Virus record (IMG/VR): IMGVR_UViG_2645727905_000004
Location: 1 to 18,612 of that record
Source of the DNA: a virus
Taxonomy: Duplodnaviria; Heunggongvirae; Uroviricota; Caudoviricetes
Direction: 5' to 3' (one strand)
Length of the DNA: 18,612 nt
The notes below the pieces were generated by a model that had not been told where the DNA came from, searched no databases, and saw nothing but the letters and a program-made list of their open reading frames with translations. Of this stretch, positions 1,098 to 14,943 are shown piece by piece. A program made the translations under genes and the position numbers. Position 1 is the first letter of the stretch. Each line of letters opens with the position of its first letter.

Positions 1098-1207
1098 TAC
1101 TTAACAGAACTTTTATTTTTGACAAACATATAATATTTTCAACAATATCCTGAGCCAGGTATATTTCAGTATAAGGCTCTGCCGGAAGGAATCTGGAAGA
1201 ATGAATA

Positions 1208-1284: not shown

Positions 1285-1385
1285 TGAATACCGATAATGG
1301 ACCGCCATCGGGGACCCGCCCCCCGCACCAACAACCCTGTTATCGTGTCGTCTGCTCTTCCTGATAAGCTAATGGCGGTTTGTGA

Positions 1386-1461
1386 TGGTGGCCCTTGCTG
1401 GATTTGAACCAGCGACCTGGCGATTATGAGTCGCTCGCTCTCACCACTGAGCTAAAGGGCC
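1386..1461 (-). tRNA. tRNA with CAU anticodon, ileX/ileZ-like (tRNA-Ile2 with lysidine; Met not excluded by anticodon alone)
   Basis: Reverse complement GGCCCTTTAGCTCAGTGGTGAGAGCGAGCGACTCATAATCGCCAGGTCGCTGGTTCAAATCCAGCAAGGGCCACCA; 76 nt cloverleaf, anticodon loop CTCATAA, closely resembles E. coli ileX as recalled; one A-C mismatch at the top of the anticodon stem. Confidence 0.8.
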
Positions 1462-1500
1462 GGGAGCAGAATAATAACGGTCCGTAATTAATTTCGCAAT

Positions 1501-1528
1501 AAAAAACCCGCTCAGCGGCGGGTTGTAG
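1501..1528 (-). terminator. rho-independent terminator downstream of the Q-dependent late promoter (tR-prime-like)
   Basis: Minus strand reads ACAACCCGCCGCTGAGCGGGTTTTTT: GC-rich hairpin followed by a T6 run. Confidence 0.6.
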
Positions 1529-1571
1529 AAACTCTTCTAACGTCAGGCATAAAACGCCCATCGTTATGACG

Positions 1572-1599
1572 AATTTACCACAGATTCCGGAAAAATCAA
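1572..1599 (-). promoter_or_regulatory. candidate late promoter (PR-prime-like) with probable Q-utilisation site immediately downstream of the Q gene
   Basis: Minus strand TTGATT-16 nt-TAAATT directly after the Q stop codon, followed about 40-60 nt later by the hairpin terminator at 1501-1528; arrangement parallels lambda PR-prime/qut/tR-prime. Confidence 0.45.
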
Positions 1600-1604
1600 C
1601 CTTG

Positions 1605-2426
1605 TTACCTAGTTACCTTTTTTAACTGCCGCTCAGCCCATGCTTCTTCAATATCAAACCGGGTCACCAGCGCATCATAAAATTTCTTAACTGTTTTTTC
1701 CCATGACGCGCGTGTTATCTGGTTTGTCACCTCGCATATAGCATTAAATGCCTCCGTTGATGGTAGTCTTTCATAGCCACGACCACCACAACGCTGGCAG
1801 TCTCTGATAACAGGCATACCACGTTTTACCGACTCTTCACGATGAATGGCGACACCACGCCCACGGCAATCCTTACAGGCGGTGGAAACCTCACCCTTTC
1901 CGCCACACTCCGGACAGGCAACTTTTACCACCTCCCTGACTTTTTTCCATTCTTCCCAGTAAGACGGATACACACCTTTCGTACACTTTGCCCATACCGG
2001 CGGCTTACCATCCGGATACTGGACCTTGTTTGTAAAAACTATGCTTTCAATAAATTTTTCCCCATAGCAACAAGGGCACTGCTTTTTACTCGCTGCGCTG
2101 CGGGCATAATCCTCAAAAGCGTACGAAGCCATAATGCGCATCACTACCGGTTTTATTTCTGCCGGAAGTTTTCTCAACGCCGCCACACGATCGCACCGAC
2201 TGAGTGCATAATCTGCCAGTAATTCTGTTGCCCGCGCCCTGTCATTCATACTGATGCCCATTTTCCCCAGGAACGCAGAAAAACCCATCTCAGCCCGATT
2301 CTGTGTCATGCCCTGCGCGGCCATCACATCAGTGATACTCAGCGCATCTTTTGACGTTGAGGCCGATGCATCGGTCAGGCCAGGGGATTTTGGGGAGTAG
2401 TATTTCGGTAAATCTTCCAGTTTCAT
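1605..2426 (-). CDS. late-gene antitermination protein Q (lambdoid Q family, zinc-finger type)
   Basis: 273 aa; several CxxC pairs (CPCC, CPECGGKG, CKDCRGRG, CQRCGGRG); sits between rusA and the late promoter/tRNAs as in Qin and Stx-type prophages. Confidence 0.75.
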   Translation of the reverse strand: MKLEDLPKYYSPKSPGLTDASASTSKDALSITDVMAAQGMTQNRAEMGFSAFLGKMGISMNDRARATELLADYALSRCDRVAALRKLPAEIKPVVMRIMASYAFEDYARSAASKKQCPCCYGEKFIESIVFTNKVQYPDGKPPVWAKCTKGVYPSYWEEWKKVREVVKVACPECGGKGEVSTACKDCRGRGVAIHREESVKRGMPVIRDCQRCGGRGYERLPSTEAFNAICEVTNQITRASWEKTVKKFYDALVTRFDIEEAWAERQLKKVTR

Positions 2427-2440
2427 TTTTTGACCTGCTC

Positions 2441-2797
2441 TTAATGCATTATGGGGTAAATCTTCACCCCCAGACGTCCACCAGATACTGGCTGACCACG
2501 AACGATATTGATTTCATCAAACTGCTCATCGTCCATTAACACTCCCGCATGCGTCAGCGCATCCAGCGGTGCTTTCAGAATGTTGTCCAGGTCGCGACGA
2601 CGCTTATCCGGTGGCTCTGCAATCACCTTTATCGCCAGCCTTCCGGACAGGCTTAATTTCAGCCGCTGCTGGCGAACAATAAACGCCACAGCCCGGCGAT
2701 AACGCTTTCCCTCCTCCGAGATAAAATATGTGCTGCCACGGCGTCGCCAGTAAGTGTTCACCGTCGGCGGGTAAGGTAAAACCAAATCTATGAGCAT
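2441..2797 (-). CDS. rusA: crossover junction endodeoxyribonuclease RusA (Holliday junction resolvase)
   Basis: 118 aa; motifs YRRRG...PPDKRRRDLDNILKAPLDALTHAGV...GGRL match the RusA family; located in the nin region upstream of Q. Confidence 0.85.
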   Translation of the reverse strand: MLIDLVLPYPPTVNTYWRRRGSTYFISEEGKRYRRAVAFIVRQQRLKLSLSGRLAIKVIAEPPDKRRRDLDNILKAPLDALTHAGVLMDDEQFDEINIVRGQPVSGGRLGVKIYPIMH

Positions 2798-2809
2798 CAG
2801 TCACCTCTT

Positions 2810-3859
2810 TTACCCAAGCACGCCAGTTGCAAAGGCGTGATCAAGAAAACGAAAAATTAAATCAACCTGAGAACCATGCTTTTCTTCGAACGCCAGCGGA
2901 TCCGCATGAAGCTCGTTGTGATGCTCCCGACACAGCGGTAGCGTGAAAATATCGTGAGATTTTGTCCCCATTCCGCCCTGACCATGACCAATCAGGTGAT
3001 GGGGATCGTCGGCTGGCTTACCACAACACGCACACGGCTGTGTCTTCACCCAGCGTGTGTATTTCTCGTTAACCCAGCGGCGACGTTTAGGTCGTTTCAT
3101 GAAAGATTCCGGAGGCTCAGGATCAACGGCAATGCTGACCACCGTCTTTTCCTGTGGTGGGTTCTGTTGCTGGTGGGCGTGAGGCAGCGGCGCAAGATTT
3201 TTTGTGCGCTGTTTCAGTATGCTGATGGCGGTCTGCTCTCCCGGTACGATGTCGCTTTCGCGGTACAAGGGGCGGATTTTTTCCGCACGTAACCCCAGAG
3301 AACGACGTAATACTGCCTCCGGAAGCGCGTCCGCCACCTGATTGCAGACCGCCCACCAGGATAATTCAGCCAGAGATAATTCACGCTCCTGCGTACCGCT
3401 TATTGCGTGACCGATGACGTCAATCATCCATGCTGACAGGTTTTGATGAGCAAGTTGCTCGAGTGATTCGGATGTCTGGTCACGCAGCTGGTTGTCGCAG
3501 TGCCAGCACAACACCATTGCGCCGGTACCATAACGGTGAATGACGGTTTCGCTGTGATGATAATCGCCGTGTGGCCACTGGCAGGATTTAATATGGCGCA
3601 ACAGCCAGTCAGACAATGCACCAGCACCACCAGCAGCACGAATCACCCGTGCGTTACTGAAAAACGGCAGCAATGTTTTGTCTTCCACTAGCGGCTGGTG
3701 AACGGCAGGAACAACCCCGGACGGCAGATTACGCATGCTTTTCGGTTCCGGCTCCACCAGTACCCGGGTATTGTGGAATACCGGCATGGATTCACGGCCC
3801 GGCTTAACGATCACCAGCCCGAGTTCCGGTACCAGAACAGGTCGAAGTAATACCCGCAC
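2810..3859 (-). CDS. ydfU: YdfU-like prophage protein (DUF968) with C-terminal HNH-like zinc-finger motif
   Basis: 349 aa; C-terminus CACCGKPADDPHHLIGHGQGGMGTKSHDIFTLPLCREHHNELHADP; GTG start with GGAGG SD; synteny with the Qin quuQ-ydfU-rem-hokD block. Confidence 0.7.
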   Translation of the reverse strand: MRVLLRPVLVPELGLVIVKPGRESMPVFHNTRVLVEPEPKSMRNLPSGVVPAVHQPLVEDKTLLPFFSNARVIRAAGGAGALSDWLLRHIKSCQWPHGDYHHSETVIHRYGTGAMVLCWHCDNQLRDQTSESLEQLAHQNLSAWMIDVIGHAISGTQERELSLAELSWWAVCNQVADALPEAVLRRSLGLRAEKIRPLYRESDIVPGEQTAISILKQRTKNLAPLPHAHQQQNPPQEKTVVSIAVDPEPPESFMKRPKRRRWVNEKYTRWVKTQPCACCGKPADDPHHLIGHGQGGMGTKSHDIFTLPLCREHHNELHADPLAFEEKHGSQVDLIFRFLDHAFATGVLG

Positions 3860-3860
3860 G

Positions 3861-4139
3861 TTACCTCCAGATGCGTTGCTGGAATGTGCGGGACGGACGC
3901 GGTGGGCGCTCGGAGTAAGGAAGCCTGACGGAGATTATCCAGTGACGATAATCGAGGCTGAGGGCTTTCTTAATCTCGTATCCGTGTCTGCGGTAGCACT
4001 GAATTAGCCACTCGGCCTGTTCTTCAGTGCATGGGGGATGCTGGAACCAGTCAGATTTGAAAGTGCGGGAACGCCGCCCGTGCCTGCTGGCAAAGACGGC
4101 AGAATCATCAGAATTGTGTAATTTGGTATCGTGCGCCAT
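3861..4139 (-). CDS. small nin-region protein (position equivalent to Qin rem); function unknown
   Basis: 92 codons from the ATG at 4139; the longer ORF-track start at 4268 would run through the hok terminator hairpin, so the internal ATG is preferred; stop overlaps the ydfU-like start region. Confidence 0.45.
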   Translation of the reverse strand: MAHDTKLHNSDDSAVFASRHGRRSRTFKSDWFQHPPCTEEQAEWLIQCYRRHGYEIKKALSLDYRHWIISVRLPYSERPPRPSRTFQQRIWR

Positions 4140-4209
4140 CGGTTGTCTCTGCTGGCGCAGCAGGTGCCAGTTGTTCAGGCTGGCGTGCGAATTGTAAACC
4201 AGAACGACC

Positions 4210-4238
4210 AGAAAAAACAAAACCCGCCGAAGCGGGTT
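4210..4238 (-). terminator. rho-independent terminator at the 3' end of the hok transcript
   Basis: Minus strand AACCCGCTTCGGCGGGTT hairpin followed by TTGTTTTTT, about 70 nt downstream of the hok stop. Confidence 0.65.
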
Positions 4239-4306
4239 AAGTGCGGGTGCGTTGAGGATGCCTGACACATCAGCGGTGGCGAGGGATTTCTCCCCCGCCG
4301 GGTCTC

Positions 4307-4462
4307 TTACTCCTCAGGTTCGTAAGCTGTGAAGACAGCGACCTCCGTCTGGCCGGTTCGGATTCGTACCTCGCAGAGGTCTTTCCTCGTTACCAGTGCC
4401 GTCACTATGACGGTTAAACAGATGACGATCAGGGCGATTAACATCGCCTTTTGCTGCTTCAT
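4307..4462 (-). CDS. hokD: Hok-family type I toxin (HokD/RelF-type small membrane peptide)
   Basis: 51 aa MKQQKAMLIALIVICLTVIVTALVTRKDLCEVRIRTGQTEVAVFTAYEPEE, matching HokD as recalled; SD AAGGAG upstream; an in-frame upstream ATG at 4519 gives the 70-aa ORF in the track. Confidence 0.85.
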   Translation of the reverse strand: MKQQKAMLIALIVICLTVIVTALVTRKDLCEVRIRTGQTEVAVFTAYEPEE

Positions 4463-4753
4463 AGCCTGCTTCTCCTTGCCTTTCGGCACGTAAGAGGCTA
4501 ACCTACATTTGTGAGACATAGATTGGGCCTCAGATTAATGTTAAGCGTCGTGCAGGACGCGTAATGTTAACTGGGGCTTTTCTCTATCTGCCTTTTGGTG
4601 TTCATGCCTGAGACAGATAGCCTCAAGCACCCGCAGTCATTCTACTTAACTAAGATTTCCCCGCAAACCGTTTTTATCCCCAGCTGCAAATCGAATACAC
4701 AACAAGTGCTGCCGCCATTGCAATTCCTGTCGTTGTGAATGCCTCCGGCCAGG

Positions 4754-5176
4754 TCATCGTAAAACATCCTCCGCGCTTATCAGCCCATTCCGCTCCAGAT
4801 ACCCCATCGCCATATCCGGTAATTTGCAATCTGGTTTCGCTTTTTTCAACTGACTTACCAATTGTTTAACCAGCATTGCCAACTCTTCCTCATGTGAAAG
4901 TGATGCCGGTTGCGCAGCGTACAGGGGTTTTGGCGCAATGGCTGAGTGTTTTGCGTATGCCGCAACAGATTCAGCATTGAACAAAACCATATTGTGAGCA
5001 CAGGACCATGCAACTGGCATTGCTTCAAGTGAGGCAAGCGCAATACGGGCAAGCGCAAGATCCATTTCAATGGCAACTCTTGAAGTCTTAAACACGGTCT
5101 GTCGCGCAGCAAATTTCATGGATTTCACACTTTCATTAGCATGAGCAATCAATTGCTCTCTGGTAAATTTCGTCAT
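4754..5176 (-). CDS. hypothetical protein (141 aa from ATG at 5176), no recognised family
   Basis: ORF in early-right orientation; the internal ATG is preferred over the track start at 5227 because the latter has no SD; moderately biased composition. Confidence 0.45.
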   Translation of the reverse strand: MTKFTREQLIAHANESVKSMKFAARQTVFKTSRVAIEMDLALARIALASLEAMPVAWSCAHNMVLFNAESVAAYAKHSAIAPKPLYAAQPASLSHEEELAMLVKQLVSQLKKAKPDCKLPDMAMGYLERNGLISAEDVLR

Positions 5177-5209
5177 ATTTTTCTCATCCAGTCCTGTCGC
5201 TATGCCTGC

Positions 5210-5252
5210 GCAACCATTACCCCACAATTACATCACAGGGGGTAATGGTTGC
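5210..5252. repeat. perfect 14-bp inverted repeat (GCAACCATTACCCC / GGGGTAATGGTTGC) with 15-nt AT-rich loop in an intergenic gap
   Basis: Read directly: arms at 5210-5223 and 5239-5252; no flanking T-run on either strand, so not a classical intrinsic terminator. Confidence 0.8.
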
Positions 5253-5347
5253 AATTCAGTGGCCACCGCGAGATTCACATCATTCACAATAAATCATAAA
5301 AATACACGCAATCACAGACCATAATAAAAGAACTGTTTCGGCCACAA

Positions 5348-5698
5348 TCACAAGACCTTCCCACATTTCTTTTTCCCACACCTCCTGAAACCAGAGAATC
5401 GGCATATCGCCCCCCTCTGAAAAACAACCACATGCCCTAGCTTCTCCGCCAGAGCCAGTTCCGCTTTAGCGCCTGCTGACCGTTGCCAGTCTTTCAGCAT
5501 ATAAATCGCATCCACGCTACGTATCATTGCCATGCAGATATCCATGTAGTGCGGCTGTGTCAGCCCGTCCGGAAGTACTGCCGGGTTCAAGACTGTATGC
5601 CCTTCCCGTTTCAGTTCCTCTTCCGCCTTGTGGAACGCCTCACGGTTGAAATTTTTATACCCGGTCATTGGACCGGCAATATAAACTCTCACCCTCAC
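5348..5698 (-). CDS. DUF4406-like protein (nucleoside 2-deoxyribosyltransferase-like fold), prophage accessory
   Basis: 116 aa; N-terminal VYIAGPMTG motif typical of this family; GTG start overlapping the upstream stop (GTGA) with GGAG SD. Confidence 0.55.
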   Translation of the reverse strand: MRVRVYIAGPMTGYKNFNREAFHKAEEELKREGHTVLNPAVLPDGLTQPHYMDICMAMIRSVDAIYMLKDWQRSAGAKAELALAEKLGHVVVFQRGAICRFSGFRRCGKKKCGKVL

Positions 5699-5976
5699 TC
5701 CTGAACTCTCCTGTCGAAATAAACGTAGTTATTCACTGTGCGCAACGGCATTCCAAATTTTCTGGCGATTTCTCTCCTGGGTACGCCACGCTGATGCAGC
5801 TGTCGCGCCAGTTCAATATCACTCTGTGGATATTTTGTTGACTGGTGATAATCACCCCGTAACATCAGACTGACACCCAGTTCCCGCGCTTTCGTTCTGA
5901 CAGCATCACCTGTACGACCGGTCAGCCTCCCAATGCTTTCGACCGTCATCGTTCCCGCACACTGACGGAGTATCAT
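5695..5976 (-). CDS. small helix-turn-helix DNA-binding protein, unknown role
   Basis: 93 aa from the ATG at 5976 (GAGG SD 8 nt upstream); two HTH-like segments (ESIGRLTGRTGDAVRTKAREL and RREIARKFGMPLRTVNNYV); stop overlaps the next start. Confidence 0.5.
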   Translation of the reverse strand: MILRQCAGTMTVESIGRLTGRTGDAVRTKARELGVSLMLRGDYHQSTKYPQSDIELARQLHQRGVPRREIARKFGMPLRTVNNYVYFDRRVQE

Positions 5977-6008
5977 GATTTCAGCCTCGTACCACTTCTT
6001 CCAGCCAC

Positions 6009-6770
6009 TCACCGCTGCAGCTCTCCGGTCGCGGTAATATCCCGAAGAATATCCCGGTGCTTGTTCAGCTCCCGCAGCGCGGCGCAGACTCGTTCCCACT
6101 TCTGGACATGACTTTTCGCCCGACGCAGTTCGAGGTTTGCCATATGCAGCGATGGTAAAATCAGGTCATCCGCTCGCGTTTCAGTAAACGATGGCAGCGA
6201 CTGCACAATGCCCGCTACAGTTTCTGTTTTAATTTCTTCCTGTGTTGCGGCTTCCCGGACTGGTAACGCAACACCTGCTGGCTGAGGAAAGGTCTTACCA
6301 TCATTTTCCGTTACCGATGCTGCTTTCGGCTCTGCTGGTAAATTACCGCCCGGCATGCAGTAACGAAATTTACCGCTCTGATTAACGCGTGCCAGCCGCC
6401 CCGTTGCGGTTACCACCGCCAGCGTGGAAGCAACCTTGCGAGTACTGATGCCGAACTTACCCGCCAGTTCCTCACACGTTTTAGCCCCATCCTGACCGAT
6501 AAACTCAATCATCATGTCTGCGGTAACTTTTTGTTCGACCTCCCCGGTCAGCATATCCTGTGCTTCAGATTTTACTGGCCGCTCTTCGGTTACCAGGGAT
6601 TCACTTTCGCCAGCCAGAAACCAGGTGTGACCAGTTTTATCAACGACGCCATTTCTTTTGAGTTCCCACAGCTCGTTGAGAACCTCTTCACGACTGATAT
6701 CAAGTCGCGCGGCCAGTTCTACCGATGTGGCTTTTCCCATTGCTTTCAGTGCGTCAAAAACGGTTTCCAT
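6009..6770 (-). CDS. prophage protein with two winged-helix-like repeats (DUF1627-like)
   Basis: 253 aa; internal repeat [29 protein letters not shown] and [29 protein letters not shown]; GGAGG SD 9 nt upstream of the ATG. Confidence 0.55.
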
Positions 6771-6791
6771 TAAAATTTCCTCCGGACAAAA

Positions 6792-7538
6792 TTACTTCAC
6801 AACCCTCAGGTGTCTGACATTCGAACGCCAGCTCTCCCAGTTAAAATTCACCCAGCGACCACCGTTCATGACCATGCGGTCCATCACACGCTCGCCAAGA
6901 AGCGTACTCATCGCTACGTGGTTCAGGTTCGTCAGCATTCCGACACTACGCATCGAAGCCGTTCTGCGGTCGACTATCTGGTTCAGTGTGACCTGCTCGT
7001 TGCGCGTATCCCGCTGCATTCCGATTTCATCCAGGACAAGCAGGTCAACATCACACAACCCCTGTAAAAATTTTTCGCCTGAGTTTTTGTTGTCGTAGCT
7101 GTTGTGTAACGCCAGCATCACATCAGCCACCGTTATCACAATCACGCTGCGACCTTTCGCCAGAAGATGATTGCCAATGGCGGCTGCAAGGTGGTTCTTT
7201 CCGGTACCCGGCTTACCGCTGAACACAAAATTCGTGCACCCGGTCATCAGTTCGTCAGCGATGGATTTTGCCTGGCTCAGCGCGTGTTTTTGCCCGTCGT
7301 TCTGCACCTGATAATTCGCAAACGAGCATTTGCTGTGCAGAGGCTGGATGCCCGAACGATTCAGGATTTTTTCCACCCGCAACTGGCGATTCTGGCGGTT
7401 GATCTCCTCGCTACGTTTTCGCCCTTCTGCCAGTTGCCACTCGCGCCACTCGTCCACTGTCCGGTACGGCGCGATTACATGCTGCGGGGTCAGCTTACGG
7501 ATACGCTCAAGAACACCACCTGTCGCGATATTTTTCAT
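6792..7538 (-). CDS. DnaC-like replicative helicase loader (phage P-analogue, AAA+ ATPase)
   Basis: 248 aa; Walker A GKPGTGKNHLAAAIG and Walker B LLVLDEIG; immediately downstream of the O-like initiator. Confidence 0.85.
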   Translation of the reverse strand: MKNIATGGVLERIRKLTPQHVIAPYRTVDEWREWQLAEGRKRSEEINRQNRQLRVEKILNRSGIQPLHSKCSFANYQVQNDGQKHALSQAKSIADELMTGCTNFVFSGKPGTGKNHLAAAIGNHLLAKGRSVIVITVADVMLALHNSYDNKNSGEKFLQGLCDVDLLVLDEIGMQRDTRNEQVTLNQIVDRRTASMRSVGMLTNLNHVAMSTLLGERVMDRMVMNGGRWVNFNWESWRSNVRHLRVVK

Positions 7539-7544
7539 GGCCCG

Positions 7545-8510
7545 TTACCCCCTGAACCCCGGCGGAATTTCGGTATCCGGCTCAGAAATATGATTCACAC
7601 AACGCTGTACAGACGAACGCCCCAGGCGGATAACCAGTTCATCCCATTTTTCGCGAAGCTTTGACGGACTCATGATATTTTTTACCCAGAATGGATCCCG
7701 CTGCACCCGACCAAACATTTCACAAATTTGTCTGTGAGTTCTGCCATCCAGCATCCGCATTGTGCGCACGTCGTTGGCCCATGCGGTCCAGTTGGGTTCT
7801 TTCGGTCGCGAAATCTCGCCATCATCGCTGGCGGCCTGCTCGTAAAGACTCACGATTCGCCCCCAGATCCACTGCGCACACGCCAAATCCTCCTGGTTGC
7901 CCCACTGGCGTTTTTTTGCACTGAACACAACCGCGTCAGGGTGTCGGGTTAAAAAATCCTGTTCAACCGTCTGCGGGTCCGGTTGCGAAGCTTCCGGACG
8001 AGAAGTGTTTTTATTCTCTGTAGTAATCTCTGTTGTATTCTCTGTAAGATCATCAGGCCATTTTGACCCGATGACATTGAGTCGTTTTGAACCAATGGAA
8101 CGTGCCATTTTGGCCTCTTCCATCGTGTCATTTTGACCTGATGGAGCAGCGCATTTTGATCTGATGGATTCGCTCACTTTGCCACCATCTAAAAGCTCGC
8201 TCTCGTAATTAATCGTGTAAAAATTAGTCATATCACGCTTTGATTTATTGAGCTTTTCGCAACGTAAAAGCCCCAGCGTTTTCAGACTTGCAAATGCGCG
8301 TTTTAACGTTGACTCTGACCAGAACGGGAACTGCTCCAGCCATTGTTCTGTTGTGTTATAAATCCAGCGAACACCATCACATTCCATGCCGGAACCGGTA
8401 TCTCTCAACCAGTAATGCAACTGCTGCAACACGATGGCTTCGTTCAGACCAATTTTCATCGCCAGCTGCGTGTTTATAACCAGCGGACGTTCAGCAAAAA
8501 GGAGCTTCAT
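7545..8510 (-). CDS. replication initiation protein (lambda O-like) with iterons inside the gene
   Basis: ATG at 8510 (the track uses TTG at 8534); N-terminal winged-helix-like region; the iteron array at 8057-8167 lies within the coding sequence and encodes an SIGSK-type repeat linker. Confidence 0.7.
   Translation of the reverse strand: MKLLFAERPLVINTQLAMKIGLNEAIVLQQLHYWLRDTGSGMECDGVRWIYNTTEQWLEQFPFWSESTLKRAFASLKTLGLLRCEKLNKSKRDMTNFYTINYESELLDGGKVSESIRSKCAAPSGQNDTMEEAKMARSIGSKRLNVIGSKWPDDLTENTTEITTENKNTSRPEASQPDPQTVEQDFLTRHPDAVVFSAKKRQWGNQEDLACAQWIWGRIVSLYEQAASDDGEISRPKEPNWTAWANDVRTMRMLDGRTHRQICEMFGRVQRDPFWVKNIMSPSKLREKWDELVIRLGRSSVQRCVNHISEPDTEIPPGFRG
8057..8250. repeat. candidate phage replication origin: five iterons at about 23-bp spacing plus adjacent AT-rich region
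   Basis: Copies of CATTTTGAYCYGATGG at 8057-8073, 8128-8144, 8151-8167 and degenerate copies near 8084-8098 and 8105-8115; AT-rich block 8190-8250. Confidence 0.6.
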
Positions 8511-8530
8511 CCCCCCCCCAGAACACGTTA

Positions 8531-8956
8531 TCAATGCGCCACCACGGCATTTCCCGCCGGACCACCACGATTCATCTGATCGAACAACACGATCGCTGCC
8601 GCAACAAACTCATCGATATCTTTCACCAGGCGCTCCCGTCGCTCGACAAGCTCCCGGTGATATTCCGAACTGTGGCTGCGCATTCGGGCCACCAGCGGAG
8701 GCGGCATTGCTTTTTCGATCGCCGGTAACAACGCCTGAATTTTTTTAACCGCATCAGGGGTGTTTTTTTCTACCCAGCGGAAAATTTTCTGGGTATTACG
8801 AGACAGGGCTTCCGGATGGCTGTCGTCGTACAATTCAGGAAACGTCATACCCAACTCAAAATAAGACTGGGTTATTTCAGCTGCCGGAACTTTTTCACCG
8901 TCCGAATGAGCCCAGGCATTCATCGCCATGCGGATGTGTTCATGCTTGATTTTCAT
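8531..8956 (-). CDS. YdaT-like (CII-like) prophage regulatory protein
   Basis: 141 aa beginning MKIKHEH, characteristic of the YdaT family as recalled; AGGAG SD 8 nt upstream; directly downstream of the Cro-like gene. Confidence 0.6.
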   Translation of the reverse strand: MKIKHEHIRMAMNAWAHSDGEKVPAAEITQSYFELGMTFPELYDDSHPEALSRNTQKIFRWVEKNTPDAVKKIQALLPAIEKAMPPPLVARMRSHSSEYHRELVERRERLVKDIDEFVAAAIVLFDQMNRGGPAGNAVVAH

Positions 8957-9221
8957 GAATCAAGCTCCTAGAAAGTGGTTGTGTTAACGTTTTGGTATCT
9001 TCCAGCTCGGGCCAAATATTCATCCAATCAAAAGGCCTTAGTTGCTGACGTGTAACTTCACCATTACTGGCTCGCTCAATAAGGACACATAACGATGCCC
9101 CTAACACTTGACCTTTACTCAATGCCTTTCTTAGATAACCGATGCTGGTACCACACTCGCATGCAAACATACGCTGTTCATCTGACGAAAGAGAATTGAG
9201 AAATATTCTTAATTCTTCCAT
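8940..9221 (-). CDS. YdaS-like Cro-type HTH regulator (first gene of the early-right operon)
   Basis: 93 aa; motif ERASNGEVTRQQLRP resembles the YdaS/Cro family; AAGGAG SD 5 nt upstream; divergent from the repressor gene. Confidence 0.6.
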   Translation of the reverse strand: MEELRIFLNSLSSDEQRMFACECGTSIGYLRKALSKGQVLGASLCVLIERASNGEVTRQQLRPFDWMNIWPELEDTKTLTQPLSRSLIHENQA

Positions 9222-9246
9222 AGCTACTCCTTAGTAAACACAGCAA

Positions 9247-9316
9247 AGAATACCCACAGGTAAACAAAAGTCAATACCCACAGGTTGTTTACCTTGCGGT
9301 AATCGCATCTATTATT
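9247..9316. promoter_or_regulatory. divergent promoter/operator region between the cro-like and repressor genes
   Basis: Operator-like TACCCACAGGTA at 9251-9262 and TACCCACAGGTT at 9275-9286; minus-strand promoter TTGACT-17-TATTCT overlapping them; plus-strand TTTACC-16-TATTAT ending 6 nt before the repressor ATG (leaderless-type). Confidence 0.6.
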
Positions 9317-9321
9317 TACCT

Positions 9322-9741
9322 ATGGACAAATATGAATTTAGACGACAGCAACTCATCAAAATTCGTGATGAGAAATGCGATGGTAAAGCGGTTAACGTGG
9401 CCAGAAAGATCGGGCGCGAGCCTTCTTATGTATCAAGAATGTTGTACCCAGAGGGGAAAAAGGGAAAAAAACGGATCGCTGATGATATGGTGGAGATTAT
9501 CGAAGAGTCCTTTGGGTTACCCCGGGGATGGATGGATGGTATCGTTTCATCATCAACGAACACAGCCTCCAGTTATGAAACAAGGGTTCTAACGCCACGA
9601 CAACGTATTTTTTTAGATCTCTTAGACGAACTGCCAGAAAGTGAAGCGGATAACTTATTAAAAACTCTTGAAGAGAAAAAACAGTATTACAATATGATCT
9701 ACGAAGAAATCCGTAAAAAGAAAGCACAAAACGCATCATAG
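9322..9741 (+). CDS. prophage repressor, XRE-family HTH, DicA-like
   Basis: 139 aa; HTH KAVNVARKIGREPSYVSRML; C-terminal segment LTPRQRIFLDLLDELPESEADNLL resembles the DicA C-terminal region as recalled; flanked by operator palindromes. Confidence 0.7.
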   Translation: MDKYEFRRQQLIKIRDEKCDGKAVNVARKIGREPSYVSRMLYPEGKKGKKRIADDMVEIIEESFGLPRGWMDGIVSSSTNTASSYETRVLTPRQRIFLDLLDELPESEADNLLKTLEEKKQYYNMIYEEIRKKKAQNAS

Positions 9742-9784
9742 CTCACCAAACAACTAGTCACCAGTTAAGACACCGCAAAAAAGT

Positions 9785-9821
9785 TACCCATGGGTATTTA
9801 CTTTTTAAATACCTATGGGTA
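9785..9821. promoter_or_regulatory. paired operators for the dicB-operon (early-left) promoter
   Basis: Perfect palindrome TACCCATGGGTA (9785-9796) and near-palindrome TACCTATGGGTA (9810-9821), same consensus as the sites at 9251-9286. Confidence 0.6.
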
Positions 9822-10007
9822 TCCTTCTTTTCATACCAACCCACCCCGCCCCACAGAACGCAGGGAAATACTTCGAGTTACCCGGCAGTGGTCAGGGGTT
9901 AAGTAGCCAGCCCGAGGCGTAAGAACATGACGGCAGGGTTCAACTTTAATAACTATGCAGCAGGTTTTTGTTCCGCTACCCCGGCGTTAAGGGGGAATGA
10001 GGTCAGC

Positions 10008-10163
10008 ATGGATACTATCGATCTTGGCAACAACGAATCTCTGGTGTACGGCGTGTTTCCAAACCAGGACGGCACGTTCACCGCAATGACGTATACCAAA
10101 AGCAAAACGTTTAAAACCGAATCTGGAGCGCGTCGCTGGCTGGAAAGAGATTCAGGTGGGTGA
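10008..10163 (+). CDS. ydfA: YdfA-like small protein (dicB operon)
   Basis: 51 aa MDTIDLGNNESLVYGVFPNQDGTFTAMTYTKSKTFKTESGARRWLERDSGG, matching Qin YdfA as recalled; an in-frame upstream ATG at 9927 would give 78 aa. Confidence 0.65.
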   Translation: MDTIDLGNNESLVYGVFPNQDGTFTAMTYTKSKTFKTESGARRWLERDSGG

Positions 10164-10164
10164 T

Positions 10165-10293
10165 ATGGATTTCGACACAATCATGGAAAAGGCTTACGAA
10201 GAATACTTCGAAGGCCTTGCCGAAGGCGAAGAAGCCCTCAGCTTCAGCGAATTTAAACAGGCGCTTTCCAGCCCGGCAAAATCTAACGGCTGA
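10165..10293 (+). CDS. ydfB: YdfB-like small acidic protein (dicB operon)
   Basis: 42 aa MDFDTIMEKAYEEYFEGLAEGEEALSFSEFKQALSSPAKSNG translated by hand; too short for the ORF track; starts 2 nt after the ydfA stop. Confidence 0.6.
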   Translation: MDFDTIMEKAYEEYFEGLAEGEEALSFSEFKQALSSPAKSNG

Positions 10294-10322
10294 TAAGCGA
10301 AGCAGCACCGCGAGGAATCAGT

Positions 10323-10541
10323 ATGCAGAAACGAGAACCCGTCATCATCGCGCCAGACTATACCGATGATGAACTTTATGAGTGGATGCACCAGAAAATT
10401 AAGGCTGCGCAGGACCTGAAATGGGCCAATGAAGCCAGGGCTAAGCAGGCTGAAAATCTGTCCGCTCTGGAGCAGGATATCACCAATCTGGAAAAAGCAG
10501 CGGCATTAAGCATTGCCAGAATGATTACATACCCACGTTAA
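10323..10541 (+). CDS. ydfC: YdfC-like protein (dicB operon)
   Basis: 72 aa; GAGGAA SD 5 nt upstream; position and length match Qin ydfC. Confidence 0.7.
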   Translation: MQKREPVIIAPDYTDDELYEWMHQKIKAAQDLKWANEARAKQAENLSALEQDITNLEKAAALSIARMITYPR

Positions 10542-10563
10542 TAGCTAACCAACGAGGCTAATA

Positions 10564-10971
10564 ATGGAATTTAAAGATTTACCAAAAGAAATCCAGACAA
10601 TTGCTGCAACGACTCTCGGTGATAGTCTGGTGAAAATTGACCCGGCATACACCAAAAAAGAAACCATCGATAATATGGTTCGTAATGTGCGCAATGCTTT
10701 TTCTGGGCTATATGGTTCTGATAATCAAAAGCAGGAAAGCGATGTTAATAAACGGGTAATTTCTGTTTGCGTGAATGGCCATGTTCTTTCATCAATCAAA
10801 ACAGAAACGGCGACAGTCTTCGATTGCCTTTGCATTGTACAGAGCCTTGTTGATGCCCTGTTTCGTTCAGTGAATTTAGAAAATGATGCAAATCTGCGAG
10901 GGCGCACAATAGCACATCCATATGCACATACTTTAGGCTCTGTGGATATCAAAGATCCCACAAATCTTTAA
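10564..10971 (+). CDS. hypothetical protein, inserted gene between ydfC and dicF
   Basis: 135 aa; GAGG SD 6 nt upstream; AT-richer than flanking operon genes; no family recognised; absent from the K-12 Qin arrangement as recalled. Confidence 0.55.
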   Translation: MEFKDLPKEIQTIAATTLGDSLVKIDPAYTKKETIDNMVRNVRNAFSGLYGSDNQKQESDVNKRVISVCVNGHVLSSIKTETATVFDCLCIVQSLVDALFRSVNLENDANLRGRTIAHPYAHTLGSVDIKDPTNL

Positions 10972-11182
10972 TGAAATAGTTAACGCGAATTGTACTTGCT
11001 CTTTCAGTTGCTTTCAGAATACGCGTTGAAACTGCTGGCGGTAATTTGGTATTCCATTTATTAAAATCATGCCCGGGAAAGTACTCTTCGAAAATACTTT
11101 TAACTGCAGACTCGCCTATTGAAATGCTGCTTACCATGCGATTTTGATAAAGGCATTTAGCAATAAGAGTTGATTTTAACAT
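10949..11182 (-). CDS. hypothetical small protein convergent with, and overlapping, the 135-aa ORF
   Basis: 77 aa; AGGAGG SD 4 nt upstream of the ATG at 11182; 3' end overlaps the 3' end of the plus-strand ORF by 23 bp. Confidence 0.45.
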   Translation of the reverse strand: MLKSTLIAKCLYQNRMVSSISIGESAVKSIFEEYFPGHDFNKWNTKLPPAVSTRILKATERASTIRVNYFIKDLWDL

Positions 11183-11505
11183 TCACCCTCCTGAGGGTTG
11201 GTAATTAAGGAGTTCTCCATGGGTGAAGTGGAGTGCGTGCGCCGGACACGGGTGAACATCCGGCACTGACAGTTTACTGAAAGGATATTTCTCTGAAAAG
11301 TCAGAGCATAACGCGAAAGCGCACGGCGAGGTTGCTGGTTCATAGATAGCCTGTCGTTAAATTTTCGTCGACCGTGCGCTTCCGGTTGTGGCACTCCGCG
11401 AAATGGCGCGGCGGTAAGTATGGCGGGGTTATTCCTTCCCCGTTGAGGACACCGGGTTGTCAGGTTGACCATACGCCTGAGTGACAACTCCGCTACAACA
11501 ACCCA

Positions 11506-11565
11506 TGTTGATTACCTTTTGGCGGGTATTCGTTTTGTTTTTCCCGTGATACCCGCCCCTTTTAA
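11506..11565 (+). ncRNA. dicF: DicF-like small RNA (variant) ending in an intrinsic terminator
   Basis: Sequence TTGATTACCTTTTGGCGGGTATTCGTTTTGTTTTTCCCGTGATACCCGCCCCTTTT resembles DicF as recalled (GGCGG..GTTTT..CCGTGA..CCGCCC + U-run); sits between ydfC and dicB as in Qin; boundaries approximate. Confidence 0.5.
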
Positions 11566-11740
11566 AGTGAATTTTGTGATGCGGTGAATGCGGCTCAGCG
11601 CACGCGGAACAGTTAAAACAAGCGGTCTTTTACTTGCGTAACAGACATCAACTAACAATCCGGCGTTAATGGTTTACTGGTTAACGTCACCTGGAGGCAC
11701 CAGGCGCCGCATCACAAAATTCATTGTTGAGGACGCGATA

Positions 11741-11929
11741 ATGGAAACGTTATTACCAAACGTTAATACGTCTGAAGGTTGTTTTGAAATTGGTGTCACT
11801 ATCAGTAACCCAGTATTTACTGAAGATGCCATTAACAAGAGAAAACAAGAACGGGAGCTATTAAATAAAATATGCATTGTTTCAATGCTGGCCCGTTTAC
11901 GCCTGATGCAAAAAGGATGCTGGCAATGA
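11741..11929 (+). CDS. dicB: cell division inhibitor DicB
   Basis: 62 aa METLLPNVNTSEGCFEIGVTISNPVFTEDAINKRKQERELLNKICIVSMLARLRLMQKGCWQ, near-identical to K-12 DicB as recalled; the longer track ORF starts upstream in frame. Confidence 0.85.
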   Translation: METLLPNVNTSEGCFEIGVTISNPVFTEDAINKRKQERELLNKICIVSMLARLRLMQKGCWQ

Positions 11930-12129
11930 ATACTACATTTGCACTTGTTCTGACGGTTTTTCTTGTTTCCGGTGAACCGGTTGACATGGTTACTGGCGTA
12001 TACGGCTCAATGAAAGAATGCATGGTTGCCGCAGCGGAACAGAAAATTCCCGGTAACTGTTATCCGGTCGATAAAGTTATTCACATGGATAATAACGAAA
12101 TCCCGGCAGGACTTAAAACAGCACCGTAA
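11926..12129 (+). CDS. ydfD: YdfD-like small membrane/lysis protein
   Basis: 67 aa MNTTFALVLTVFLVSGEPVD...; start overlaps the dicB stop (ATGA); hydrophobic N-terminus. Confidence 0.65.
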   Translation: MNTTFALVLTVFLVSGEPVDMVTGVYGSMKECMVAAAEQKIPGNCYPVDKVIHMDNNEIPAGLKTAP

Positions 12130-12209
12130 TTAATATCCGGTTTCATTTTTATATGCCAGCAATGGCAGGGATTTGTTCACCCTTAAATCTGTAATGAGGT
12201 TAAAACAAA

Positions 12210-14681
12210 ATGAGTAAAGTCTTTATTTGCGCCGCCATTCCGGACGAACAGGCAATAAAGGAAGAAGGTGCAGTCGCTGTAGCCACTGCCATTGAAGCTG
12301 GCGACGAACGCCGTGCTCGAGCAAAATTTCACTGGCAGTTCCTGGAACATTATCCGGCTGCTCAGGACTGCGCTTATAAATTTATTGTCTGCGAGGATAA
12401 ACCTGGCATACCCCGCCCTGCCCTCGATTCATGGGATGCTGAATATATGCAGGAAAACCGCTGGGATGAGGCGTCTGCTTCCTTTGTCCCGGTTGAGACT
12501 GAATCAGATCCGATGAACGTCACTTTTGACAAGCTGGCCCCTGAAGTACAGAACGCTGTCATGGTTAAGTTCGACACATGTGAAAACATCACCGTTGATA
12601 TGGTTATTAGCGCACAGGAATTGTTGCAGGAAGACATGGCAACATTCGACGGACATATCGTTGAAGCGTTGATGAAAATGCCAGAAGTTAACGCCATGTA
12701 TCCGGAGCTTAAGCTGCATGCCATCGGGTGGGTTAAGCATAAATGTAAGCCTGGTGCCAAATGGCCCGAAATTCAGGCAGAAATGCGCATCTGGAAAAAA
12801 CGTCGCGAAGGTGAACGCAAGGAAACCGGAAAATACACGTCTGTTGTTGATCTCGCCCGCGCCAGAGTCAATCAACAGCACACTGAAAATTCAACAGGAA
12901 AAATCAGCCTGGTCATTGCTGCCATTCATCGCGAATACAAGCAGACATGGAAAACACTGGATGACGAACTGGCCTACGCTCTCTGGCCTGGTGATGTGGA
13001 TGCCGGAAACATTGACGGCAGCATCCATCGCTGGGCAAAAAATGAAGTTATCGACAACTACCGCGAAGACTGGAAGCGTATCTCGGCATCAATGCGCAAA
13101 CAGCCTGATGCCCTTCGCTACGACCGCCAGACTATTTTTGGCCTTGTCCGTGAACGTCCGATCGACATTCACAAAGCCCCTGTGGCACTGAACAAATACA
13201 TTACTGAATACCTGACTACAAAGGGCGTGTTTGAAGATGAAGGAACAAATCAGAGCGCAACTGATACTCTCTCGTCGCCAGTACCAGAAACTGATGCAGT
13301 GGAAACGGCAATTCCGGACAACGAAAAAACCGAATGCAAAGTGGAAGTCGAACCATCTGTAGAGCGTGAGGGGCCGTTCTACTTCCTCTTCACCGACAAG
13401 GATGGCGAAAAATACGGTCGCGCAAACAAACTTTCTGGTCTGGATAAGGCACTGGCTGCCGGGGCTACTGAAATCACGAAAGAAGAATATTTCGCCCGCA
13501 AAAACGGTACATACTCAGGTTCACAACAAAATACTGGTGCATCTGACACGACCGCACAACCAGAGCCGGTAAAAGTTACCGCTGACGAAGTAAACAAAAT
13601 TATGCAGGCAGCCAATATCAGCCAGCCTGACGCCGATAAGTTGCTTGCTGCCTCTCGCGGAGAATTTGTTGCAGGGATTAGCGACCCGAATGATCCGAAA
13701 TGGGTTAAGGGGATCCAGACCCGCGATTCTGTAAACCAGAACCAGCATGAATCGGAACGGAACTACCAAAAAGCGGAACAAAACAGCCCAAATGCGTTAC
13801 AAAACGAGCCAGAAACGAAACAGCCTGAACCAGTGGCGCAACAGGAAGTGGAAAAAGTCTGCACCGCCTGCGGTCAGACCGGCGGCGGCAACTGCCCTGA
13901 TTGTGGCGCGGTGATGGGCGACGCAACATACCAGGAAACATTCGATGAAGAGTATCAGGTTGAAGTTCAGGAAGATGATCCGGAGAAAATGGAAGGCGCT
14001 GAACATCCACACAAGGAGAACACTGGCGGCAATCAGCATCATGCCAGCGATAATGAAACTGGCGAGACGGCAGATCACTCAATTAAGGTGAACGGTCATC
14101 AAGAAATCACATCCACCAGCAGGACGTGTGACCATCTAATGATCGACCTTGAAACCATGGGAAAAAATCCTGATGCCCCGATCATCTCAATAGGTGCAAT
14201 ATTTTTCGATCCGCAAACCGGAGATATGGGACCGGAATTTAGTAAGACTATCGATCTGGAAACTGCTGGCGGAGTCATTGATCGGGACACCATTAAATGG
14301 TGGCTTAAGCAATCACGCGAAGCGCAATCTGCCATTATGACCGATGAAATCCAGTTAGATGATGCACTGTTACAATTGCGGGAATTTATCGACGAAAACT
14401 CCGGTGAATTTTTTGTTCAGGTCTGGGGAAATGGAGCCAACTTCGACAACACGATTTTGCGCCGTTCATACGAACGGCAGGGGATCCCCTGCCCGTGGCG
14501 TTACTACAACGATCGCGATGTACGCACAATCGGTGAGCTGGGGAAAGCCATAGACTTCGATGCCAGAACGGCTATTCCATTCGAAGGTGAGCGCCATAAT
14601 GCACTTGATGACGCCCGTTACCAGGCAAAATACGTTTCAGTTATCTGGCAAAAACTGATCCCGAGTCAGGCTGATTTTTAA
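12210..14681 (+). CDS. large prophage exonuclease (exodeoxyribonuclease VIII / RecE-annotated type) with C-terminal DEDDh 3'-5' exonuclease domain and internal zinc ribbon
   Basis: 823 aa; C-terminal motifs MIDLETMG, WGNGANFDN, HNALDDARY typical of DnaQ-like DEDDh exonucleases; CTACGQTGGGNCPDCG zinc ribbon; acidic low-complexity linkers; position matches Qin ydfE. Confidence 0.7.
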   Translation: MSKVFICAAIPDEQAIKEEGAVAVATAIEAGDERRARAKFHWQFLEHYPAAQDCAYKFIVCEDKPGIPRPALDSWDAEYMQENRWDEASASFVPVETESDPMNVTFDKLAPEVQNAVMVKFDTCENITVDMVISAQELLQEDMATFDGHIVEALMKMPEVNAMYPELKLHAIGWVKHKCKPGAKWPEIQAEMRIWKKRREGERKETGKYTSVVDLARARVNQQHTENSTGKISLVIAAIHREYKQTWKTLDDELAYALWPGDVDAGNIDGSIHRWAKNEVIDNYREDWKRISASMRKQPDALRYDRQTIFGLVRERPIDIHKAPVALNKYITEYLTTKGVFEDEGTNQSATDTLSSPVPETDAVETAIPDNEKTECKVEVEPSVEREGPFYFLFTDKDGEKYGRANKLSGLDKALAAGATEITKEEYFARKNGTYSGSQQNTGASDTTAQPEPVKVTADEVNKIMQAANISQPDADKLLAASRGEFVAGISDPNDPKWVKGIQTRDSVNQNQHESERNYQKAEQNSPNALQNEPETKQPEPVAQQEVEKVCTACGQTGGGNCPDCGAVMGDATYQETFDEEYQVEVQEDDPEKMEGAEHPHKENTGGNQHHASDNETGETADHSIKVNGHQEITSTSRTCDHLMIDLETMGKNPDAPIISIGAIFFDPQTGDMGPEFSKTIDLETAGGVIDRDTIKWWLKQSREAQSAIMTDEIQLDDALLQLREFIDENSGEFFVQVWGNGANFDNTILRRSYERQGIPCPWRYYNDRDVRTIGELGKAIDFDARTAIPFEGERHNALDDARYQAKYVSVIWQKLIPSQADF

Positions 14682-14739
14682 TGTTCAACCCTAATTGCCG
14701 CTAACCGTATATAGTTAGCGGCGGTTATGAGATATAGCT

Positions 14740-14943
14740 ATGAGCAACTTATTTTTAACCGAAGATGAATTGCTAATATTAACGGGCTGCAAATATGCAA
14801 GCCACCAGCGAAAATGGTTAACGGAAAACGGGCTTCCGTTCTATACCAATCGTAGTGGCAAACCGATTGTCAGCCGGGATCTATTTACCTGCAATAAAAC
14901 TTTACCACCACGCGAGGTAGAGCCGAATTTTGGTGCAATCTAA
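14740..14943 (+). CDS. excisionase-like small DNA-binding protein
   Basis: 67 aa directly upstream of int with overlapping stop/start (TAATG). Confidence 0.55.
   Translation: MSNLFLTEDELLILTGCKYASHQRKWLTENGLPFYTNRSGKPIVSRDLFTCNKTLPPREVEPNFGAI

Follow-up and report, generated by a model that had tools for sequence, protein, structure and literature searches.

A probable iteron-type replication origin within the O-like initiator gene of a lambdoid prophage

Six phased iterons inside the O-like gene

We analysed IMG/VR virus record IMGVR_UViG_2645727905_000004 over positions 1 to 18,612. This 18,612-nucleotide (nt) stretch, referred to here as the window, is an Escherichia coli-type lambdoid prophage at a tRNA-Ser gene, adjoining mtfA. 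On its minus strand, an open reading frame (ORF) at 7545..8510 encodes a 321-amino acid (aa) O-like replication initiator (ORF and translation; called "phage O protein family" by the Prokaryotic Genome Annotation Pipeline on an identical sequence; PHROG 391). An array of repeats, or iterons, lies inside this gene and is followed in the coding direction by three tandem 12-mers. An earlier reading of the sequence (the original prediction) had proposed an iteron-type origin at this place, and we evaluate that proposal here.

Six phased copies of a 21-nt imperfect palindrome (ATCrGGTCAAAATGACCyGAT on the coding strand) occupy positions 8052-8188 on the minus strand, spaced 23/23/23/23/24 bp in the coding direction. 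In that order they are iteron 1 (ATGGTGGCAAAGTGAGCGAAT, 8168..8188), iteron 2 (ATCAGATCAAAATGCGCTGCT, 8145..8165), iteron 3 (ATCAGGTCAAAATGACACGAT, 8122..8142), iteron 4 (AAGAGGCCAAAATGGCACGTT, 8099..8119), iteron 5 (ATTGGTTCAAAACGACTCAAT, 8076..8096) and iteron 6 (ATCGGGTCAAAATGGCCTGAT, 8052..8072), the last adjoining the 12-mers. Iterons 3 and 6 are strong, with 1/21 mismatch to the consensus, three copies are intermediate (iteron 4 is listed as weak), and iteron 1, which stands in array phase 23 bp from iteron 2, is degenerate (7/21 mismatches). The arms of the palindrome are complementary at 6-7/9 positions in iterons 2 to 6 (7/9 in iteron 3) and at 4/9 in the weak iteron 1. Every copy holds an A4 tract.

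A repeat search returned a 23-nt family at 8051, 8075, 8121 and 8144, and a 12-nt family (D2) added a copy at 8104. Scanning with a 13-nt palindromic core, GGTCAAAATGACC, gave minus-strand copies at 8056, 8080, 8103, 8126, 8149 and 8172 with 1, 3, 3, 1, 3 and 4 mismatches, respectively, at spacings of 24, 23, 23, 23 and 23. In 1000 dinucleotide-preserving shuffles, the number of same-strand core matches within 130 bp never rose to the five seen here; the highest value was three, in a single shuffle. Because the core was derived from the same data that were scanned, the real evidence is the clustering and phasing of its copies. The consensus given with the original prediction, CATTTTGAYCYGATGG, had four matches at ≤3 mismatches (0.88 expected over the whole window), and all four fall within 8059-8167. 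Iterons 2, 3, 5 and 6 were recovered by the repeat search and by both the consensus and core scans, and iteron 4 by family D2 and the core scan. The repeat search, both scans and the shuffles thus bear out the presence of repeats at the predicted place inside the initiator gene. The original description of five repeats of about 16 bp at about 23-bp spacing was correct in its spacing, but the array consists of six 21-nt copies, one of them degenerate.

The iterons cover codons 108-153, between a winged-helix domain (aa 1-105) and a lambda-O-like C-terminal domain. Since 23 is not a multiple of 3, successive iterons are read in different frames, and the peptides they encode, from all three frames, are DGGKVSES, IRSKCAA, PSGQNDTM, EEAKMARS, IGSKRLN and IGSKWPD. 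The "SIGSK-type linker" that had been described is recognisable in three copies, which read IRSK, IGSK and IGSK, but the other three, in other frames, give GGKV, SGQN and EAKM. Because the copies fall in three frames, encode unrelated peptides and are palindromic as well, the repeat is a property of the DNA and not of the protein.

A hybrid initiator that co-varies with its iterons

The 321-aa protein matched PHROG 391 ("replication initiation O-like") with an E value of 1.1e-95, aa 18-321 aligning with positions 13-298 of the 298-position profile, and tblastn located relatives of this type in phages of Escherichia, Klebsiella, Erwinia, Pseudomonas, Vibrio, Staphylococcus, Bacillus and Bacteroides. 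No Pfam family matched the protein at E≤0.01, including the Phage_rep_O-type N-terminal domain. The name "O-like" suits its C-terminal half, in which aa 147-294 aligned by BLASTP with lambda O 135-270 at 34% identity over 148 aa (E 3e-27); this domain, at 7626..7928 on the minus strand, is homologous to the P-binding C-terminal domain of lambda O. The name does not extend to the N-terminal domain, which lacks a Pfam match and for which a profile comparison with the lambda O N-terminal domain (hhalign) gave a probability of 0.3%, with no homology detected.

The N-terminal domain (aa 1-105; 8196..8510, minus strand) is presumed to bind the iterons. An AlphaFold2 model built on 48 sequences, with a predicted local distance difference test score of 87.7, has a winged-helix fold with a helix-turn-helix (H54-60, recognition helix H66-79) and a beta-hairpin wing (b82-85/b97-100). 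Its best matches in the PDB by Foldseek are 4pql, 4pt7 and 5kbj, which are N-terminal domains of staphylococcal plasmid RepA proteins and include a Rep-iteron complex.

At the other end of the protein, aa 300-321 (7548..7613, minus strand) form a DnaT-like tail (...EIPPGFRG). The match to positions 158-179 of the 179-position NCBIfam DnaT model had an E value of 0.0027, far under the family cut-off, and a sequence search of the PDB returned matches to the DnaT tail only (chains 2ru8, 6aep and 9zbt; E 0.008-0.03). A tail of the form ...SEPDTEIPPGFRG also ends the K-12 Rac protein YdaU and the O proteins of mEp460_4F5 and Klebsiella Kp4882-3, despite different upstream domains. From its sequence the tail could be a common docking peptide for the DnaB-DnaC machinery; the DnaT preprimosome paper gives no function for the extreme C-terminal tail of DnaT. 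The initiator is thus a hybrid, with a non-lambda winged-helix N-terminal domain, a lambda-O-like C-terminal domain and a DnaT-like tail, and is partnered with a DnaC-type helicase loader. Two phage records named as isolates, PhiR42_1 (L003 2538-3966) and mEp460_4F5 (L005 1513-2984), have the same O-type initiator, iterons and 12-mers and no DnaC-like gene after them; the genes that follow the initiator there encode LygF/methyltransferase or a hypothetical protein. It may be that the DnaC-like loader is dispensable or replaceable for this type of origin, because these two records lack the gene at that position.

Relatives of the initiator hold iteron arrays at the same position and spacing, with iteron sequences that differ along with the protein. 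In mEp460_4F5 and Klebsiella Kp4882-3 (N-terminal domain identity 75-78%), GGTCAAArTGA occurs five to six times at 23 bp. Erwinia PEp14 (61%) has five copies of GAGGGCAAATTGCCC (GGGCAAATTGCCC), and Klebsiella SopranoGao (56%) has GGGGCAAAATGCCCC, found as a 45-nt family in four overlapping copies at 23 bp with about five copies of the core. The iterons are followed by 12-mers in all four. Nearly all members of an 80-locus sample, which was retrieved through N-terminal domain peptide patterns only, have four to six copies at 23 bp. The original prediction would have been undermined by repeats that were not conserved in homologous initiator genes; the arrays are kept at the same place and spacing, and the origin interpretation therefore survives.

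The two residues that start the predicted recognition helix (E66-S67 in the window protein) track the third base of each half-site. Genes with "ES" at this position have a GGTCAA core in 65/66 distinct cases, and the array geometry is identical in 132/132 ES-type genes. Of the 41 "[S/V/A/P/H]D" genes that yielded a repeated core, 40 have GGGCAA; another 14 xD genes, the majority of the AD class, yielded none. The two "AK" genes are divided, one having GGACAA and the other GGTCAA. The matching change is present in the other arm of the palindrome, so that both half-sites vary symmetrically. In these sequences, such co-variation is the pattern predicted by a dimeric, helix-mediated readout of the iterons. 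The initiator would accordingly be expected to bind the iterons specifically, as both the co-variation and the predicted winged-helix fold suggest.

The 12-mer tract and its proposed role in opening the origin

Three tandem 12-mers, ACAGAGAATACA, ACAGAGATTACT and ACAGAGAATAAA, lie at 8010..8045 on the minus strand (repeat family D3), beginning 6 bp after the iterons in the coding direction (8045 to 8010). The unit consensus is ACAGAGANTACW and the encoded peptide is TENTTEITTENK. The tract coincides with a trough in GC content (0.30), has an A-rich coding strand (plus-strand AT skew -0.43), and is the least stable 36-mer of the O-like gene (-39.8 kcal/mol; about the 99th percentile of the window). 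Among 64 distinct related origins it is the most conserved nucleotide stretch, exceeding the iterons, and when relatives are grouped by GC content, its GC averages about 0.34 in every class. We propose it as an unwinding and helicase-entry element, and consider the arguments for and against this role to be evenly balanced.

The original prediction had placed an AT-rich block after the repeats, at 8200..8250. This block exists, with a GC content of 0.30-0.33 over 8200-8259 and a second stability minimum at 8200-8235. It sits 5' of the iterons in the coding sense, however, whereas the tract of lambda and P22 is on the 3' side, and it encodes the wing of the winged helix (KLNKSKRDMTNFYTINYESE). 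Across 124 relatives, the block has a low overall GC content (0.41), but at third codon positions its GC content (GC3) is 0.59, against 0.59 and 0.58 elsewhere in the gene. With GC3 no different from its surroundings, the block owes its AT-richness to amino-acid composition and is probably not a conserved origin element. Because it lies on the opposite side, encodes the wing and has ordinary GC3, the lambda-equivalent A+T-rich element is probably the tract at 8010-8045, just outside the span originally reported.

The origin could be real and the 8200-8250 block nonetheless open first, the 12-mers having some other role. The predicted duplex instability of the block equals that of the tract, both being at about the 99th percentile of the window, its GC content is only 0.30-0.33, and in the window's own lineage its GC3 is 0.46 against 0.57 for the rest of the N-terminal domain. 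We consider this unlikely, as across the 124 relatives GC3 is 0.59 in block and rest alike (0.59 vs 0.59), the AT-richness comes from K/N/Y/I/F codons of a structured part of the protein, and the tract of lambda and P22 is 3' of the iterons. In GC-rich relatives, moreover, the block is not AT-rich (0.57 in 8P); the tract averages about 0.34 across relatives grouped by GC.

Codon usage in the tract was counted in an unbiased sample retrieved with the N-terminal domain, with the same genes as background. The first Thr of the unit is ACA in 190/191 cases (ACA is 15% of Thr codons in the background), the Glu is GAG in 188/188 (background 58%) and the last Thr is ACA or ACT in 185/186 (ACC is 38% of the background). 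The variable residue x is I, N, S or T and is always encoded by ANT (ATT 79, AAT 78, AGT 22, ACT 7), where ATC and AAC each make up about 50% of the background.

The tract is not confined to this prophage or its closest relatives. The O gene of Stx2_14040 holds 40 nt that are 97.5% identical to window positions 8012-8051, with four ACAGAGAnTAC units directly after unrelated GGGAAACCC-type iterons, and encodes a different N-terminal domain. An exact scan of viral contigs for ACAGAGANTACNACAGAGA gave at least 120 loci. The tract lies in the T-E-x-T frame of 250-350-aa ORFs in 117/123 of the viral matches listed, and in that frame in 109/120 of the genomic matches listed. Upstream of the tract, the viral matches listed have three to six repeats at spacings of 21-24 bp (mostly 22-24, with a few arrays at 21). 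The sequences of these repeats are many and unrelated, and the genes include both those that have the window-type N-terminal domain and those that lack it. A 23-nt pattern scan of one genome per species (596 Gb) gave at least 120 matches, with about 0.5 expected by chance; those listed come from Gamma-, Beta-, Alpha- and Deltaproteobacteria, Bacillota, Chloroflexota, a Chlorogloeopsis cyanobacterium, Gracilibacteria, Fibrobacteres and Nitrospirae. Among the listed matches, 106 loci had both flanks, and two or more spacings of 21-24 nt were found upstream of the tract in 70 of them and downstream in one. By blastn with 65 nt of the window, the tract was found in 123 deposited phage records, including phages of Acinetobacter, Bacillus and Staphylococcus. 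In the annotated records listed it falls under replication-initiator, regulator-annotated or unnamed genes, with one weak exception. Coding instances in relatives include L004 ~1990-2037, L005 1965-2003, L007 1947-1994, L009 1947-1970 and loci L092-L411. Pattern matches in Nostocales and in an Iainarchaeum metagenome-assembled genome (MAG) fell in unrelated YNRD-repeat proteins and were discarded.

Some tracts are non-coding and stand directly after direct repeats spaced 22-23 bp. They occur in Hyphomicrobiales MAG contigs, Planococcus soli, Bacillus sp. FJAT-29814 and Orenia metallireducens (loci L306, L334, L372 and L378, near the locus end; L346 240-262; L356 4049-4071; L316 6235-6257), and look like intergenic origins on the same plan. 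The fixed synonymous sites together with these non-coding instances indicate that the constraint on the tract acts on DNA (or transcript) and not on the peptide. In one IMG/VR contig (2808606654_000010, L260), the initiator ORF reads the tract in another frame (…YYNKDYYRD) and stops at 151 aa; here the DNA tract persists in a frameshifted or truncated gene.

These observations also bear on whether the repeats reflect only a flexible protein linker (SIGSK in the iterons, TENTTE in the tract) with no function as DNA. The region does encode a low-complexity inter-domain linker, and the prevalence of the T-E-x-T frame among the matches listed would be expected of a conserved peptide. The iterons, however, are palindromic, are read in three frames as unrelated peptides and co-vary with the DNA-binding helix, and the tract keeps its synonymous sites fixed while x varies among I, N, S and T and also occurs in non-coding DNA after iterons. 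We regard the linker-only explanation as having almost no chance of being correct.

The tract lies directly 3' of unrelated iterons; the initiators that accompany it have unrelated N- and C-terminal domains, and the helicase or loader that serves as partner differs too. Easy melting would not account for conservation of this kind, which implies that something common to these hosts or replicons recognises the tract. Candidate roles are a site where the replicative helicase or primase enters or assembles, or an R-loop or primer site that depends on a transcript. Recent horizontal spread, or a recombination "linker" joining the N- and C-terminal domains, is a less favoured explanation, since the tract also occurs in non-coding origins and, with unrelated flanks, in distant phyla. 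A weak proposal is that the 12-mers are DnaG start sites; each unit has 5'-CTG on its non-coding strand and matches a primer in length, but primase trinucleotides differ among phyla. Our literature search, whose coverage is incomplete, found no paper on the 12-mer (as DNA or peptide) or describing it, including in the literature on replisome-organizer origins. We tentatively suggest, at somewhat less than even odds, that tandem copies (two to five) of ACAGAGANTACW are an undescribed origin DNA element common to phages and prophages across bacterial phyla. The surprise of this locus is this flanking tract, which is near invariant beside unrelated iterons from E. coli to Bacillus, Staphylococcus, Chloroflexota and bacteria of the candidate phyla radiation. 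If it is a helicase or primase delivery point, it would be a common "landing pad" of mobile-element origins and also a simple sequence tag for locating origins in phage genomes.

We conclude, with a probability of roughly 80%, that the six iterons are sites for the initiator and that window positions 8010-8188 are the vegetative replication origin of this lambdoid-type prophage. On the model of oriλ (PMC7466680) and of winged-helix plasmid initiators (PMC10602881), dimers of the N-terminal domain would bind the iterons through the helix starting at E66-S67 and form an O-some-like complex in which the DNA is wrapped or bent. This complex would destabilise the adjoining 12-mers, possibly aided by pR-type transcription through the gene, and the C-terminal domain and tail, with the phage DnaC-like loader, would recruit or deliver host DnaB.

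Several observations weigh against this reading. Just two iterons are near the consensus and one is very degenerate. Consensus scans near the origin found only one-mismatch, chance-level matches to DnaA boxes and no integration host factor (IHF) sites. The fold matches of the N-terminal domain are modest (Foldseek E ~2e-3, template modelling score 0.5-0.56), and generic winged helix-turn-helix regulators score similarly. The co-variation counts come from related sequences and are not independent events. The tract is just ~67-70% A+T and its sequence is strictly conserved, which suggests specific recognition rather than simple easy melting, and the 8200-8250 block is as unstable as the tract (-40.1 vs -39.8 kcal/mol per 36-mer), so that either could be the site of first opening. 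Finally, we infer all three of binding, unwinding and autonomous replication.

A different interpretation is that the iterons are mainly regulatory (in autoregulation, as a transcriptional roadblock, in copy-number "handcuffing" or as a partition site) and do not mark the start of replication. Plasmid iterons do mediate copy control and autorepression as well; to our knowledge, such roles add to origin function in every characterised iteron system and are not alternatives to it. There is no adjacent partition gene, and the core scan found no further iteron copy near the promoter. Although inhibition of phage replication by cloned lambda ori fragments, as described in PMC3349717 and PMC4488673, would suit a regulatory role, we judge a mainly regulatory array very unlikely.

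Prophage setting and comparison with known origins

The early genes of the window are arranged as in the lambda early-right operon. Directly 3' of the O-like gene, a gene at 6792..7538 (minus strand) encodes a DnaC-like AAA+ helicase loader (Pfam IstB_IS21, E 2.6e-18; PHROG 50, "DnaC-like helicase loader"; NCBIfam PRK12377, 1.6e-150, and DnaC, 1e-94). On the 5' side, in the same operon and strand, matches to library profiles identify a cII-like (YdaT) gene at 8531..8956 and, 5' of it, a Cro-like (YdaS-like) gene at 8940..9221. A pR-like promoter candidate at 9247..9274 (minus strand), a consensus match only (9/12 hexamer positions in a consensus scan), would transcribe through the origin, and a repressor-like gene at 9322..9741 (plus strand; PHROG-level annotation and position) diverges from it. 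No Rfam RNA family was found over window positions 7400-9400. The Q antiterminator gene is at 1605-2426, and 3' of it, on the minus strand, are genes for tRNA-Arg(TCT) and a CAT-anticodon tRNA (1208-1284 and 1386-1461), the latter called Met by ARAGORN and annotated as Ile in related records. Downstream of the Q gene is the usual position of tRNAs in lambdoid and Stx-type prophages.

In no complete E. coli genome of the collection was more than 76% of the window found in one place. Strain JNE25-003 matches it over 2839-14729 only, at 97.5% identity, and carries an identical O module in a prophage of ~39 kb. The structural genes of this prophage form a full set (terminase, portal, capsid, sheath, tube and baseplate), and its tail-fibre region has an IS3 insertion and pseudogenes. 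The attachment site of that prophage is yccA / tRNA-Ser, and the window is flanked by mtfA / tRNA-Ser / tRNA-Asn / yeeJ. On these alignments the window appears to be a mosaic prophage, combining a common replication and immunity core (2839-14729) with a different integration module. The original prediction had called the prophage truncated, which finds no support, as the window merely ends in the late-gene Q/tRNA region and the JNE25-003 relative has the full structural set.

DNA matches to the O gene were found in 3211/5426 complete E. coli genomes and were near full length in 237. Phage records named as isolates (HannyBb, PhiR42_1 and mEp460) have O genes of 90% identity that contain the same iterons and tract. 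The O-like and DnaC-like ORFs are intact and full length against family profiles. Because these ORFs are intact and the same origin is present in phage records named as isolates, it is plausible, from these comparisons, that the replication module is functional. The origin could instead be a silent relic in this prophage, owing to defects elsewhere or to permanent repression. Many E. coli prophages are cryptic, the JNE25-003 prophage with the identical module bears the IS3 insertion and tail-fibre pseudogenes, and the window is not intact in any complete E. coli genome of the collection. Set against this are the two full-length ORFs, the agreement of iterons and tract with those phage records, and the presence of the repressor, cro-like and cII-like genes and the pR-like promoter candidate, and we think a silent origin improbable.

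Among systems outside the lambdoid phages, the DNA-unwinding element (DUE) of E. coli oriC consists of three tandem 13-mers. The window origin is similar in having tandem 12-13-nt A+T-rich units beside initiator-binding sites, and the T-rich strand of the middle unit, TCTGTTGTATT, resembles what we take to be the oriC M 13-mer, TCTGTTCTATT, a likeness that serves as a lead only. It differs in that it lacks nearby DnaA boxes, its initiator is not DnaA and the element lies within a gene. In iteron plasmids (staphylococcal RepA_N pSK41, RK2 TrfA, F RepE), a winged-helix initiator binds direct iterons 22-23 bp, or about two helical turns, apart, beside a DUE of repeated 13-mers. The window protein shares a predicted winged-helix fold, its best structural matches being RepA N-terminal domains. 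In contrast to these plasmids, the window origin is within coding sequence, and its initiator has a phage-type C-terminal domain and does not detectably resemble plasmid Reps in sequence. PMC10602881 describes a Rep protein that keeps iteron double-stranded DNA and DUE single-stranded DNA together.

The Rac prophage of K-12 has the same order of YdaS-like, YdaT-like, initiator and DnaC-like (YdaV) genes, and its initiator also ends in ...IPPGFRG. Its oriJ has been described as an active origin (PMC3945230), and a sequence-level mapping of oriJ was not found in our literature search. The Rac initiator YdaU differs in its DUF1376 N-terminal domain, and its gene has internal repeats of AAGCAGATGTTCAA at 33 bp and no ACAGAGA tract. 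The Stx-phages 933W and P27 have six iterons in their origins (PMC7466680), as does the window, but their iterons and O proteins are of the lambda type. Stx2_14040 differs from the window in having a third kind of N-terminal domain and a helicase gene after the O gene.

In P22, the annotated rep_origin likewise lies within the initiator gene (gene 18). Its iterons, of the TCGGTAAAAC type, precede direct repeats of ACAAAAGACAAT, a motif made of ACA and a purine run; these repeat at 14 bp and are read in two frames. The iteron sequences differ from those of the window, the P22 initiator has a lambda-O-like N-terminal domain, the motif is ACAAAAGA and not ACAGAGA, and the phage encodes a DnaB-type helicase (gp12) instead of a loader. 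The ACAAAAGA motif is repeated in the AT-rich region of both lambda and P22, and in lambda O one degenerate unit, TCAGAGAATTCT (S-E-N-S), is present where the AT-rich tract ends on the right (lambda 39162-39173; L002 1163-1174). Judging from these sequences, the ACAGAGA tract and the classical lambdoid AT-rich region may be related.

In lambdoid phages, the middle of O contains the origin, which is made up of iterons and an AT-rich tract (PMC7466680). In lambda, four annotated iterons (ATCCCTCAAAACGAGGGA) are followed by a purine-rich A+T tract (ACACAAAAGACACTATTACAAAAGAAAAAAGAAAAG). Like oriλ, the window origin lies in the middle of the initiator gene, has dyad-symmetric iterons with a central CAAAA spaced 20-24 bp, and places a purine- and A-rich tract downstream in the direction of transcription. 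The operon order of cro, cII, initiator and helicase-loading gene is shared too, as is a homologous C-terminal half of the initiator. Lambda differs in having four 18-19-nt iterons rather than six 21-nt iterons of another sequence. In the window, strictly repeated tandem 12-mers make up the AT-rich element, the N-terminal domain has no detectable kinship to that of lambda O, the partner is a DnaC/IstB-type AAA+ loader and not P, and the initiator has an extra DnaT-like tail.

The comparison with lambdoid ori regions that had been suggested thus shows the same order of elements in lambda and P22, and this comparative evidence supports an iteron-type origin inside the initiator gene, organised like lambda ori in O. 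There is little new in the origin itself beyond iteron coordinates and a predicted specificity helix for a very common family of E. coli prophage modules, which may be of use in annotation, in predicting replication incompatibility or exclusion between prophages, and in building phage-derived replicons. The origin is ordinary in kind, a new and well-delimited member of the known lambdoid class of initiator-embedded iteron origins.

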